A DNA stretch of 64,000 nt from assembly GCA_033580375.1 (NCBI GenBank), contig GCA_033580375.1_4527.1; one strand, written 5' to 3'. A program made the position numbers and the translations under genes. The stretch's first letter is position 1, and every line of letters begins with the position of its first letter. Below, piece after piece: positions 39,794 through 52,262 of the stretch. The notes beneath the pieces are model-generated. The model did no database searches. It saw only the letters and a program-made list of their open reading frames with translations, and was not told where the DNA came from. Source of the DNA: a phage.

Positions 39794-40102
39794 TCAATTA
39801 GAAAATAAATTTATCCAAGTTTTTTCTTTAATCAAAAATGGGTCGGAATTAAACGCCATTAAACTTTGAGTGATTAATCCCTTAAATGGCCCATCAATAA
39901 ATTCCATTTTGAAATGCGGAATACTAGTCATCAACCGTGCATTAGGAGCAGTACAAAGAACCTGCTGACCTGCGAATGGACCTTTAGTCAAACGATATCG
40001 TTTAGGTTTAAAATGGTAGATCTCGTAATTTTCTACAAGAGCCCTTTTATTGCATACTGGGCTATTATAACAATATTCAAAAACTTCAATAGTGGTCATC
40101 AT
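39794..40102 (-). CDS. Hypothetical protein, about 102 aa
   Basis: Internal ATG chosen to avoid 67-nt overlap; start uncertain. Confidence 0.4.
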   Translation of the reverse strand: MMTTIEVFEYCYNSPVCNKRALVENYEIYHFKPKRYRLTKGPFAGQQVLCTAPNARLMTSIPHFKMEFIDGPFKGLITQSLMAFNSDPFLIKEKTWINLFSN

Positions 40103-40638
40103 TGCATTCCAATCACAAAAAATTGAGGACGAGCAATACCGCCGATGCAATATTTGCTTTTGCAACAGTGTTGGACTGTTTTAATATGTATGTTATAAAT
40201 CTTATCCATATCAGGAGCTTTAATAGGCTCGTCAATTATATACAGAATACGAGAAAGCGTTAATCCACGGAATTTAGAACCTTCGTTGCCAATAAAACTA
40301 CGGACAGAATCAGTAAATAAACGGAATCGAATATCGTCGCTAGAATAACGAGAAAATTCTTTTTTAATGTTGCCAGCAGAAATTTTAGAATAAGCTGAAG
40401 TATTAGAAAGAATAATAACTGTTCCACCATCATACAGCCAATTAACAGCAAAATTAGTTACTGCGGTCGATTTACCTGATTGTCTGCCGCCGTCTAAACG
40501 AAGTGTACAGTACTGCTTGAGTACGTCTTCAAATGGTGGGGCATAACCGTTCTTACAAATTTCTTCTACTCTAGCATCAGAATGGTGTGTAAAAGCATTC
40601 ATCAGGGATAGATAAGGTCCAGTTAAAAATGTTCTCAT
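40099..40638 (-). CDS. P-loop NTPase, about 179 aa (start uncertain; ORF track extends to 40752)
   Basis: Walker A GGRQSGKST; ATG at 40636-40638 preceded by AAGAGAAA; the N-terminal extension from 40752 is basic and lacks an SD. Confidence 0.55.
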   Translation of the reverse strand: MRTFLTGPYLSLMNAFTHHSDARVEEICKNGYAPPFEDVLKQYCTLRLDGGRQSGKSTAVTNFAVNWLYDGGTVIILSNTSAYSKISAGNIKKEFSRYSSDDIRFRLFTDSVRSFIGNEGSKFRGLTLSRILYIIDEPIKAPDMDKIYNIHIKTVQHCCKSKYCIGGIARPQFFVIGMQ

Positions 40639-40818
40639 ATTATTTCTCTTAAGGTTGGGGGCCATTCCATGGCGCATGAATTGTCCATTTCTGTATTTAC
40701 CCATTACCGCACTTGGGCTCGACCTTATTACAGGTTGGCGGGAATCCCTCATAGAATCATGAGGTCCAGGTTGTTCCCATTTTATTTGAATGTAAATATT
40801 TTTGCCACGTGTTTACGA

Positions 40819-40846
40819 ATTATACCAAAAAAAAAACACGTGGCAA
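40819..40846 (-). promoter_or_regulatory. Sigma70-like promoter TTGCCA-16-TGgTATAAT embedded in a 12-bp palindrome (TTGCCACGTGTT / AACACGTGGCAA)
   Basis: Minus strand ttgccacgtgttttttttttggtataattcgtaaacacgtggcaa; read directly. Confidence 0.4.
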
Positions 40847-40915
40847 TTCACAGTATTCGGCGATTAAATGTTGATCAGCAAATTTAGATACTAAAGTCAA
40901 ATTAATATAAGTCAT
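40820..40915 (-). pseudogene. denV 5-prime remnant: 31-codon [31 protein letters not shown]... truncated after codon 28
   Basis: 22 of 28 residues identical to the N-terminus of the intact DenV at 42225-42638; upstream leader also resembles the denV leader; follows ipII as denV does in T4. Confidence 0.5.
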
Positions 40916-40940
40916 TTACCCATCCAAGTAATTATGAATA

Positions 40941-40969
40941 TACTATCACAATTCTAGGAGAAAGTAAAC
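40941..40969 (-). promoter_or_regulatory. Early promoter remnant (GTTTAC + weak -10) upstream of the denV fragment
   Basis: GTTTACtttctcctagaattgtgatagtat, parallel to the promoter at 42666-42695. Confidence 0.35.
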
Positions 40970-40971
40970 TG

Positions 40972-41274
40972 TTATTTACCTTTAATTACTTTAGCTGCTT
41001 CGATAGCCGCTTGCTGAAGGTCATCCATAGACATACCGAATTTAGAAGCAAAGTTATCAATTTTCTTTTCGACAGCATTCAAAGGCTTGGCCTGTTTACC
41101 TTCATTAGCGCCAGGAAGAGCGAGAATACGCTCTTTGTCAATATAAAGGCTTACAAGTTTCTTACGGTCTTTATCGGACAAATCATGAAATGAATGGGCC
41201 TTTTTATTTATAGCGGCTTCTAATTTACCTGCACTCACTCGAGCTTCAGTAATAAATTCTTGATATGTTTTCAT
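40972..41274 (-). CDS. ipII: Internal protein with capsid-targeting sequence (IPII-like), 100 aa
   Basis: N-terminal MKTYQEFITEA (T4 internal-protein CTS, cleaved by the prohead protease); overall resembles T4 IPII as recalled. Confidence 0.7.
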   Translation of the reverse strand: MKTYQEFITEARVSAGKLEAAINKKAHSFHDLSDKDRKKLVSLYIDKERILALPGANEGKQAKPLNAVEKKIDNFASKFGMSMDDLQQAAIEAAKVIKGK

Positions 41275-42224: not shown

Positions 42225-42638
42225 TTAGTAAATTGATTTACCATAGTATTTGTACCAAGTGGGACGTTGAGCAATTTTTTCATCTAAGCGTGCTTGACTT
42301 ATCGCAATGGACGCTTCGGACGGGACATAATTATTACGAAATTCTACAGGAATGTCGGAAATATCCTGGACTGTCGTGTCCTTGATTTTGAAACCACGTT
42401 TCAAACATTCAGCTATTAGCTCGATTTGACGTAAACGTAAAAATTCGAGTTTGTCGTAAAAGAATGTTACGTGGCCCGTGCCTAAAATAAATGTTGGAGA
42501 GATTTTAAAATCTTTTACACGTTTACCATTTTGAACATGTTTACGGACTGCACCGAATACACGAGGTAATTCACGATACTCAGCCATAAGATGTTGGTCG
42601 GTCAGTTCAGAAACAAGTGTTAAATTGATACGGGTCAT
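42225..42638 (-). CDS. denV: Endonuclease V (pyrimidine-dimer DNA glycosylase) DenV, 137 aa
   Basis: [35 protein letters not shown]... matches T4 endo V as recalled; ORF track start 42650 adds 4 codons. Confidence 0.92.
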
Positions 42639-42665
42639 AATTTCCTCCAAGTAGTTGATAGATGT

Positions 42666-51486: not shown

Positions 51487-51573
51487 TTAAAATCCTTGAA
51501 ATAATTTATCGGTTGGTTATTAATTATTTATTACTTTGGTATTATCAGTAACAGCATTCTCTGAGAGATTCAA

Positions 51574-51604
51574 ACTAAAAAGCCCCAACCTTTCGGAAGG
51601 GGCT
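51574..51604 (-). terminator. Rho-independent terminator; 24-bp hairpin identical to 35088-35111
   Basis: AGCCCC...GGGGCU hairpin plus U-run on minus strand, downstream of the tRNA/stable-RNA region. Confidence 0.65.
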
Positions 51605-51900
51605 AAGCCTTGCGGCGACCTTGTCGGGGTTCCACCTGCTAAGGCAAGTGTTTGTACGAAACGCCGGGATTCGAACCCGGTTATTAAGCAGTTGACGCTA
51701 CTCAATATTTTTAAAAGGCCATATCTCGACCATATCCGAACGTTCCGTCAAAAACGCTACTCGGCTTACGGCAAAGATATTTCCTCGAATCGATAATTCT
51801 GTGCGCCGTTTCTGCTGTGATGTAAGGGGATATTAACGAATCATAAAGATTTATTAAGACCAGTCCTTACTCAGGGAACATCAGTCCGACGACTTGCCGG
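51605..51900 (-). other. ORF-free region with a perfect tRNA-type T-arm (CCGGG-UUCGAAU-CCCGG); possible small stable RNA(s) or degenerate tRNA
   Basis: T-arm consensus read on minus strand at about 51665-51681; I could not complete a canonical cloverleaf by hand. Confidence 0.3.
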
Positions 51901-51917
51901 TAGCGACCCGGCTTCTC

Positions 51918-52262
51918 TTATTTTGGCATATCATCAATTTGCTCTCTACGCCGACGCCATAGATTAATCGCTTCATAGGCACATTCTGCGTTTGGTATAT
52001 GACGGCAATAATATAATGATTCACGTTTCTGAAACCGATGTTGCAATGGGATTTCGTTTAAAAGGTCTTTACGATCAAAGTATTCAAAACTAGTTAACCC
52101 TGAACGGTTTTTAATGAACTTCCAATGACCGAATTCATTTTGAACATAGATGTAATCAGCGTGTTGATAAAGTGAATTAATCAATCGGTCTGAAATAACT
52201 GTATCATGTTCGTTAAAATAAAACGTTAAATCATGAACTACTAAATAGACATTACCTTTCAT
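51918..52262 (-). CDS. Hypothetical protein, about 114 aa, embedded in the tRNA region
   Basis: ATG 52260-52262 with GAGGAAA SD; ORF track start 52310 would overlap tRNA-Arg. Confidence 0.5.
   Translation of the reverse strand: MKGNVYLVVHDLTFYFNEHDTVISDRLINSLYQHADYIYVQNEFGHWKFIKNRSGLTSFEYFDRKDLLNEIPLQHRFQKRESLYYCRHIPNAECAYEAINLWRRRREQIDDMPK

Follow-up and report, generated by a model that had tools for sequence, protein, structure and literature searches.

A candidate family of structured phage RNA beside a decayed denV copy upstream of vs.8 in a T4-like phage

We studied a stretch of 64,000 nt of phage DNA (NCBI GenBank assembly GCA_033580375.1, contig GCA_033580375.1_4527.1; in the following, this whole stretch is referred to as the window). 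A first-pass annotation had pointed out a GC-rich region with a palindrome and a sigma-70-like promoter next to vs.8, the gene of a P-loop protein. The window belongs to a T4-like phage of the genus Mosigvirus, and the genes around the region are all on the minus strand. We find, with a probability of roughly 0.72, that the region holds two unrelated things on this strand, i.e., a decayed copy of denV (40915-40781) and a conserved structured non-coding RNA without Rfam match (40778-40661). Judged by comparison of homologous sequences, the GC-rich stretch is a candidate for a new family of phage structured RNA, which is found in T4 too but is annotated there as protein. The palindrome and the promoter-like site are real sequence features, yet they look incidental, that is, like ordinary by-products of the dead denV copy.

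Fold of the RNA element

The interval 40640-40815 had been described as much more GC-rich than the surrounding DNA. At this extent the contrast is small: the interval has only 42% GC where the window averages 37% (z=1.3), and 10% of windows of the same size reach this value. It is pronounced for the narrower interval 40661-40778, where 49.2% are reached (z=2.7, top 0.7%). This interval corresponds to the RNA element, whose parts are listed below as derived from pair counts on three alignments.

40661-40778, minus strand: structured non-coding RNA element, 49% GC
40778-40774 with 40744-40740, minus strand: P1, a hairpin whose loop holds H1 and the 5' strand of P3
40764-40759 with 40752-40747, minus strand: H1, a nested irregular hairpin
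40769-40767 with 40693-40691, minus strand: P3, a candidate pseudoknot between the loop of P1 and the 3' tail
40739-40736 with 40703 and 40701-40699, minus strand: P2, with G40702 bulged, directly after P1 and closing a three-way junction
40735-40732 with 40725-40722, minus strand: H2, with loop GUAAUA (form in the family: ACCU-GUAAnA-AGGU)
40718-40717 with 40710-40709, minus strand: H2b, i.e., GC, a variable loop and GC
40697-40741, minus strand: three-way-junction core of 45 nt (P2, H2, H2b) with the invariant GGUCGAGC and GCGGUAA, the part common to non-T4 phages
40688-40684 with 40680-40676, minus strand: H4, in T4-like phages
40673-40671 with 40663-40661, minus strand: H3, in T4-like phages, with the form GCC-AnGGAAU-GGC followed by CCC

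The evidence for the fold comes from compensatory changes. For 20 diverse T4-type sequences, 89.5% of the cells are paired, compared to 25-45% when the partners are slid. The respective covariation score is 0.200 (vs. ~0.03), a value that none of 500 shuffles reaches. Within this set, the pseudoknot pairs 17-113 (CG 12, AU 5, GC 3) and 18-112 (GC 10, CG 8, AU 2) show no unpaired case; pair 20-56 is split evenly between AU and CG (10 each), and pair 67-100 is found as UA, UG, AU and CG. The window's own subtype is 97% paired in the same fold, with compensatory changes from AU to GC in P1 and from CG to UA in H1. For P2, we could draw on 39 distinct cores from all phage types, where the pairs occur as CG 30/GC 7, as CG 27/UA 6/GC 4/AU 1 and as AU 27/UA 5/CG 3/UG 3, such that every pair of this helix changes on both sides. 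The unpaired bases of the junction (GUAAnA, CGA, GGUAA and the bulged G) are nearly invariant across the same 39 cores, and a short linker connects the junction with the 3' strand of P3. H4 and H3, the 3' hairpins specific for T4-like phages, are invariant. Finally, the many G-U pairs identify the gene-sense strand as the folding strand.

RNAalifold applied to a mixed MAFFT alignment recovered only H1, H2, H2b and H3. A shift of 3 columns at P1 between the two subtypes explains this, and pairs were therefore counted per subtype. A covariance model of the core (R1) has a single significant match within the window (40741-40697, 69.7 bits, E=2e-23), and it scores 60-70 bits at the loci of rV5-like, N4-like, 46-kb Klebsiella and Pseudomonas phages. 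Taken together, the comparative data describe the element as a strand-specific, pseudoknotted and non-coding fold with a sequence-invariant junction.

Several observations weigh against this reading. The first-pass annotation had proposed RNA structure prediction as a check; the single-sequence folding energy of the window's element does not exceed that of shuffled sequences (z=+0.35 and +0.48). P3 comprises only 3 bp (CUG/CAG) in the window's subtype and is nearly invariant there, i.e., support for the pseudoknot comes from the homologous columns of the other subtype. A crude duplex-energy test of cognate vs. swapped partners did not separate true from false tails. A second copy in phage pzk-kv4 is without P2, and T2 shows a mismatch in H2. 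Furthermore, the downstream genes differ (vs.8, internal-protein genes, tRNAs), such that no single cis function is evident. As regards novelty, the motif may already stand in a large, uncurated collection such as the published catalogue of ~10,000 candidate viral RNAs (PMC10690425).

Some further observations concern the element's sequence. A 177-kb T4-like contig carries two tandem copies (locus L040, 5094-5249, minus strand), the second of which is diverged (37.8 bits) and shows compensatory changes in H2 (GCCU/AGGC) and H2b (GUC/GAC). ANGGA motifs of CsrA type are found in H4 and H3; these were set aside, as the first is largely inside the stem. Codons 5-9 of vs.8 (CUGGACCUUAU, 40612-40622) are complementary at 10/11 positions to the RNA core (AUAAGGUCGAG, 40718-40728), and CCAACCU is repeated just before the Shine-Dalgarno (SD) sequence (40658-40652). 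Both are probably chance, since neither is conserved in the Yersinia and Klebsiella subtypes.

Distribution among phages and the start of vs.8

A 163-nt stretch covering the element has matches in 1030 phage records, with 95-98% identity in T4 and T2. The 43-nt core additionally matches rV5-like phages and one Pseudomonas phage at 92-95%. Pattern scans of IMG/VR and metagenomes provided ~80 instances with 45 distinct cores. Within T4-like phages, the element follows the stop codon of the upstream gene, which is denV, its remnant or an internal-protein (ip) gene, and precedes the ribosome-binding site of vs.8. Klebsiella phages of the genus Jiaodavirus can have it ahead of an ip gene instead, and some genomes carry two copies. 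In Klebsiella and Citrobacter phages, Vs.8 falls to ~37% identity while the RNA core is nearly identical. By comparison, the element is under far stronger constraint than its neighbouring genes.

Outside of T4-like phages, the core is found in rV5 (Vequintavirinae), in a second group of 130-140-kb contigs, in Pseudomonas phage PsgM04F, in Klebsiella phage KpCHEMY26 (Schitoviridae) and in 46-kb Klebsiella phages such as VLCpiS13d. These cores are always on the same strand as nearby tRNA genes and are usually located inside a tRNA array or a few hundred nt upstream of it, among other non-coding structured units. In KpCHEMY26, the element is ~1.1 kb downstream of four tRNA genes; at another locus (L086), it begins ~10 nt or less from a tRNA 3' end. 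The rV5 genes beside the element (ORF77, ORF74) are not homologues of vs.8. The 5,426 E. coli genomes scanned hold no copy. Across 185,579 bacterial and archaeal species, each represented by one genome, there were three matches, all without the flanking motif; two of these have no model match and one (L049) scores 20 bits (E=5.5e-4). By this distribution, the element is shared horizontally among virulent phages of several unrelated families. Finding the core next to tRNA genes in virulent Escherichia, Klebsiella and Pseudomonas phages that are not related to one another speaks for a portable function at the RNA level, linked to phage RNA metabolism or host takeover.

The surroundings of non-T4 cores show features of their own. 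At five rV5-like loci (L004, L046, L060, L066, L083), the motif AGAGGGCUUGA(U/A)AGUGC follows a small CCCU/GGG hairpin on both sides of the element, and strong sigma-70 promoters (TTGACA-N17-TAAAAT or TAAACT) are found directly downstream. These flanking motifs and promoters suggest an independent small-RNA gene there. [quoted passage not shown] With blastn matches in >900 phage records (Kuttervirus-, Felixounavirus- and N4-like), it looks like a further phage RNA that is widespread and found close to tRNA genes. In the VLCpiS13d-like region, long hairpins separate the individual units, and the units are closed by GUUGUGR/YCACAAC stems.

The position of the element bears directly on the start of vs.8, for which the window provides the following.

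40099-40650, minus strand: vs.8, P-loop protein with Walker A motif GGRQSGKST; SD-like AAGAG at 40650-40646, start ATG at 40638-40636, 179 aa

The N-terminus M[RK][TFY][FL]LT (window: MRTFLTGPYL) is kept in all Vs.8 homologues, and the respective start is located 15-27 nt after hairpin H3 in every vs.8-linked copy. The profile of PHROG 1488, 177 positions long, covers residues 3-179 of the short protein, which is also the form annotated in Escherichia phage JS09; Pfam shows no match for the short or long form. By this comparison, the conserved start of vs.8 is ATG 40638-40636 and not ATG 40752.

The first-pass annotation had considered the stretch to be either a long structured leader or an N-terminal extension of the P-loop protein. 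The leader is what we find for 40778-40661, i.e., a conserved, covarying RNA upstream of vs.8. The extension would start at ATG 40752 and yield 219 aa, as annotated in the T4 reference (NC_000866). Its frame is indeed open from 40752 in both the window and T4, and the spacing from the element to the vs.8 ATG differs by multiples of 3 among the window, T4 and T2. However, of 47 distinct homologous instances, only 2 (the window and T4 types) have a frame that possesses a start codon and stays open over the element. Whichever of the three frames is read, 41-45 of the 46 instances contain stop codons, and the frame of 40752 is interrupted in 41/46; T2 has a stop in this frame, while Melville has a TAG upstream and lacks a start codon. 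In addition, the substitutions compensate RNA pairs rather than being synonymous, PHROG 1488 covers the short protein only, and the additional peptide is rich in R, S, P and G, as is typical for translated GC-rich non-coding sequence. We therefore give next to no credence to the extension.

For T4, where the element is found at record 64938-64821 (complement), the first 40 codons of the annotated 219 aa are the RNA element (record 64790-64912), and the conserved start is by comparison at record 64792, resulting in ~179 aa. The T4 copy of the element is thus hidden, because the reference annotation reads it as coding sequence. That is, a ~120-nt RNA is annotated as protein (Vs.8 residues 1-40) in one of the best-studied genomes. 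The present comparison corrects the start of vs.8 and, as detailed below, identifies a denV pseudogene.

Other frames over the element were considered as well. A small upstream open reading frame (ORF; MDNSCAMEWPP...) with an ATGA overlap of the vs.8 start in the window, T4 and T2 was rejected, as it is kept in 7/46 instances, and a short Cys-containing frame (TCNKVEPKCGNG) was rejected for having no start codon. A Yersinia phage has a separate ORF, which ends in ATGA. In the T2 record NC_054931, the vs.8 frame is broken (...KNEYPAI*) such that only a 111-aa piece is annotated; denV is absent at this place, and the element is kept with its H2 mismatch.

The denV remnant and the promoter-like site

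Upstream of the element, the window shows the following features.

40781-40915, minus strand: denV remnant (pseudogene, second copy) with start codon (40915), N-terminal codons, a frameshift in a T-run and the last few C-terminal codons; ~290 bp deleted internally
40940-40969, minus strand: early promoter of the former denV, of T4 type, with GTTTAC/TTTACT (-35), a 17-nt spacer and TAGTAT (-10), based on sequence and alignment
40802-40846: perfect 13-bp inverted repeat with CACGTG-centred arms at 40802-40814 and 40834-40846
40819-40846, minus strand: sigma-70-like site with TTGCCA (40846-40841), a 16-nt spacer, TATAAT (40824-40819) and TG before the -10 hexamer
Gene order on the minus strand, going downstream: nudE, e, an ip gene, intact denV (42650-42225), three further ip genes, the palindrome/GC-rich region, vs.8, vs.7, vs.6 ... 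regB

The interval 40400-41000 is 98.7% identical to phage JS09. While T4 has denV directly upstream of vs.8, the intact denV of the window is located 1.5 kb upstream of the remnant. An alignment with five close relatives, T4 denV and the intact denV of the window shows where 40975-40781 comes from: the early promoter and the start codon are followed by about 29-37 N-terminal codons, which a ~290-bp deletion joins to the last few denV codons (GKNIYI). After frame correction, the remnant's peptide is 73% identical to the intact DenV (42225-42650; E=4e-17). No full-length ORF for DenV, i.e., the pyrimidine-dimer glycosylase, is present at 40915-40781; given frameshift and deletion, we consider this copy a pseudogene. 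At the homologous place, JS09 carries a 45-codon 'DenV' fragment as annotated gene (JS09_060). The deletion also explains why phages with an intact denV at the vs.8 locus match in two pieces, which span ~890 bp for a query of 601 bp. The promoter at 40969-40940 aligns with the denV promoters of T4 and of the window's intact copy, and 5/5 close relatives keep it. Its sequence (TTTACT-17-TAGTAT) is near the T4/PST early consensus TTTACW-N17-TAYWAT (PMC4122927), and transcripts started there would be expected to run through the denV remnant and the RNA element and on through vs.8.

The inverted repeat is present and slightly longer than the 12 bp initially claimed. Its arms (TTGCCACGTGTTT, 40802-40814; AAACACGTGGCAA, 40834-40846) are 13 nt long, perfectly complementary and 19 nt apart. 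The pattern occurs once in the window and in none of 100 shuffles; a search of IMG/VR that let the T-run within the palindrome vary in length returned nothing. Likewise, TTGCCA-16-TATAAT with upstream TG is found on the minus strand as described, matching 11/12 consensus positions. Both are composed of denV sequence: the left arm corresponds to denV codons (E)LPRVF and the right arm to (R)KHVA, and the TATAAT derives from GGTGCAGTT. The segments corresponding to the arms in T4 and in the window's intact denV are only weakly complementary to each other.

The spacer depends on a T-run (40827-40836, minus strand), which is T10 in the window, T5 in JS09, TU01 and T4, and T6 in AV110 and pEK20; runs of 5 or 6 give a spacer of 11-12 nt. 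That is, 16 nt result from the expansion of a T5 run (denV codons GTT TTT) to T10 in the window only, which could be due to slippage or a homopolymer sequencing error. The same run creates both the frameshift of the denV remnant and the promoter-compatible spacer. The -10 hexamer reads TATAGT in TU01, TGTAAT in ESCO47 and TGCAGT in T4, and arms or hexamer are imperfect in AV110, TU01, ESCO47 and T4. Since T-run, hexamer and arms vary among relatives, the site sits unconserved in drifting pseudogene sequence. From these alignments, the near-consensus sigma-70 site appears to have arisen by few substitutions (GGTGCAGTT to GGTATAATT) combined with the T-run expansion of the window.

Alternatively, the palindrome and the sigma-70-like site could form a functional, regulated promoter of vs.8, where the arms act as an operator for a dimeric regulator or as an initiation-modulating hairpin similar to PeSL cassettes. 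The close consensus match with its upstream TG, a perfect palindrome that is not expected by chance, and the location in a hyperplastic internal-protein region, where PeSL cassettes occur (PMC4122927), speak for such a unit. What counts against it is that the spacer is promoter-compatible in the window only (11-12 nt in five relatives) and might reflect a sequencing error of the T10 run, that arms and -10 hexamer are degenerate in TU01, ESCO47, AV110 and T4, and that the arms are inherited denV codons of a motif found once. We thus consider a functional promoter of this kind improbable, and the view of palindrome and promoter as a functional unit did not hold up. The site may fire in this one phage but is not a conserved regulatory device.

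The comparison with PeSL cassettes (PMC2839356, PMC4122927) leads to the same result. They share with the palindrome site a stem-loop with a sigma-70-like early promoter and the location in a hyperplastic region beside internal-protein genes. In PeSL, the stem-loop is upstream of the -35 hexamer of a TTTACW-N17-TAYWAT promoter (PMC4122927), whereas here one arm overlaps the -35 hexamer (40846-40834) and the other is downstream of the -10 hexamer (40814-40802), i.e., the arms straddle a TTGCCA-16-TATAAT site. Furthermore, PeSL recurs at many sites, while the window's arms come from denV codons, occur once and are unconserved in relatives. A scan of 40640-40850 for an intrinsic terminator (GC-rich hairpin with U-tract) found none; A-rich and C-rich sequence comes after the palindrome's 3' arm and after hairpin H3. 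As a whole, the palindrome/promoter part has little wider importance, at most as an example of a near-consensus promoter from decaying coding sequence.

Possible function and comparison with known RNAs

We propose that the element would be transcribed within the early polycistronic RNA from the promoter at 40969-40940, possibly from the T10 site too, and would fold on its own. A conserved partner, which could be a small ligand, an RNA or a host protein, probably recognises the invariant junction. For T4-like phages, we would expect this recognition to affect how stable the following cistron (an internal-protein gene or vs.8) is or how it is translated; in the other phages, the element's targets would be transcripts containing tRNA genes and further stable RNAs. 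Given that the contexts differ (mRNA leader vs. tRNA and stable-RNA regions), the core function should not depend on vs.8.

Different roles are compatible with this outline. It could act in cis to protect, process or license the transcript that follows (as a 5' stabiliser, a processing signal or a put-like antiterminator), which is plausible, if far from assured. A trans-acting stable RNA or decoy is possible, though doubtful. Equally tentative is a new functional class, i.e., a module of pseudoknot and three-way junction that is exchanged among virulent phages of at least 4 lineages (named for this reading are Straboviridae, Vequintavirinae, Schitoviridae, unclassified 46-kb Klebsiella phages and one Pseudomonas phage) and that acts through its invariant junction as ribozyme, ligand sensor, or host-factor binder or decoy. 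Its targets might be RNA polymerase or Rho, such that untranslated tRNA transcripts are antiterminated, or an RNase, or a defence nuclease directed against tRNAs.

These roles have to be weighed against more specific ones. The element could be a cis-regulatory leader that serves vs.8 alone, i.e., an operator of translation, as the T4 gene 32 pseudoknot is, or a riboswitch acting on the ribosome-binding site of vs.8. It is nearly always found just upstream of vs.8 in T4-like phages, with H3 ending 15-27 nt before the start, the numbers of phage records are close (vs.8 in 1011, the element in 1030), and the T4-specific hairpins are invariant. Yet homologues of vs.8 are confined to T4-like phages, while the core occurs by tRNA genes and without vs.8 in rV5-like, N4-like, 46-kb Klebsiella and Pseudomonas phages, and the element precedes internal-protein genes in Jiaodavirus phages, which makes a dedicated leader unlikely. 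We see even less reason for conservation at the DNA level, e.g., as recombination hotspot, cassette boundary or protein-binding site. In its favour are the location of the element at the margin of the hyperplastic internal-protein region and its clear movement from one phage family to another; but compensatory changes keep the pairing, the opposite strand would have A-C mismatches in place of the many G-U pairs, and the orientation is always that of the neighbouring genes and tRNAs. We thus regard this explanation as highly improbable.

A small self-cleaving ribozyme that processes polycistronic or tRNA transcripts, comparable in role to the theta ribozymes similar to that of hepatitis delta virus (HDV), would fit the compact pseudoknotted fold, the invariant unpaired nucleotides and the association with tRNA arrays, including the L086 copy next to a tRNA 3' end. 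The order of helix strands (P1 5', P3 5', hairpin, P1 3', hairpin domain, P3 3') resembles HDV-like ribozymes as well. However, no ribozyme family of Rfam scores even at E up to 10. HDV-like ribozymes have their catalytic cytosine at the first position of J4/2 (PMC10879173), whereas the equivalent position of the element holds no conserved cytosine (U in subtype 2 and type B, A in the window). Instead of a nested double pseudoknot with P1.1, there is one pseudoknot (P1 crossed by P3), and the P2 domain follows the P1 3' strand without any nucleotides in between from which P1.1 might be built. Based on these comparisons, we would assign very little weight to self-cleavage.

An Rfam scan had been proposed along with the first-pass annotation; using Rfam 15 with gathering thresholds, two tRNAs are the only matches within the whole window, i.e., no family is found at the GC-rich stretch. 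Raising E up to 10 for 40500-41000 results in chance-level matches of at most 22 bits (thresholds 43-245), and there is no match at the element in the rV5 and PsgM04F loci either. ARAGORN and the Rfam tRNA model find no tRNA, tRNA-like or tmRNA cloverleaf at the element. A conserved structured aptamer with invariant unpaired nucleotides, as expected for riboswitches, is seen in the 39 distinct cores. Consistent downstream genes and an expression platform are not, as vs.8, ip genes, tRNAs or other non-coding RNA follow, and no terminator or conserved SD-sequestering helix was found at the element.

Among the known systems, theta ribozymes by phage tRNAs (PMC10879173) are also small pseudoknotted RNAs within phage tRNA arrays with a similar order of helix strands. 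The element differs from them by the missing J4/2 cytosine, P1.1 and Rfam match, and by its long H1 compared to their 3-bp P3. The 5'-leader pseudoknot of T4 gene 32, an autogenous translational operator, is likewise a conserved pseudoknotted leader RNA of T4-like phages outside of Rfam, which according to PMC10690425 has no model for it. There is no likeness in sequence or architecture, since the element places a three-way junction between its pseudoknot stems. Moreover, unlike the gene 32 pseudoknot, it is not tied to one gene and occurs in non-T4 phages by tRNA genes.

HK022 put RNA and other cis-acting antitermination RNAs fold as nascent transcripts and act within their own transcription unit, in most cases ahead of distal genes or genes that are not translated. 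This layout would fit an element ahead of tRNA arrays and delayed-early genes; in some phages, however, the element is located inside or after the tRNA array. We know of no sequence similarity between the element and put RNA.

Finally, the T4 stable RNAs rnaC and rnaD (species 1 and 2) are, like the element, structured phage RNAs of unassigned role beside tRNA genes. Their homologues within the window are located as follows.

51680-51925, minus strand: rnaD and rnaC homologues, then a GC-rich terminator hairpin with T-run at ~51575-51615

The rnaC homologue and the terminator (51551-51707) are the GC-richest spot of the window, and Rfam shows no match at the rnaC/rnaD homologues of the window. 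An rnaD-like 3' end (CGGCGCACCA) adjoins the element in contigs of 46-kb Klebsiella phages. Kinship of the element to rnaC/rnaD was rejected, as there is no similarity in sequence or structure. Unlike these RNAs, the element is found ~6-11 kb from the tRNA cluster in T4-like phages, within an mRNA leader. With T4 genetics, a short RNA and clear helices to mutate, the element offers an experimentally tractable way into the role of phage stable RNAs such as rnaC and rnaD.

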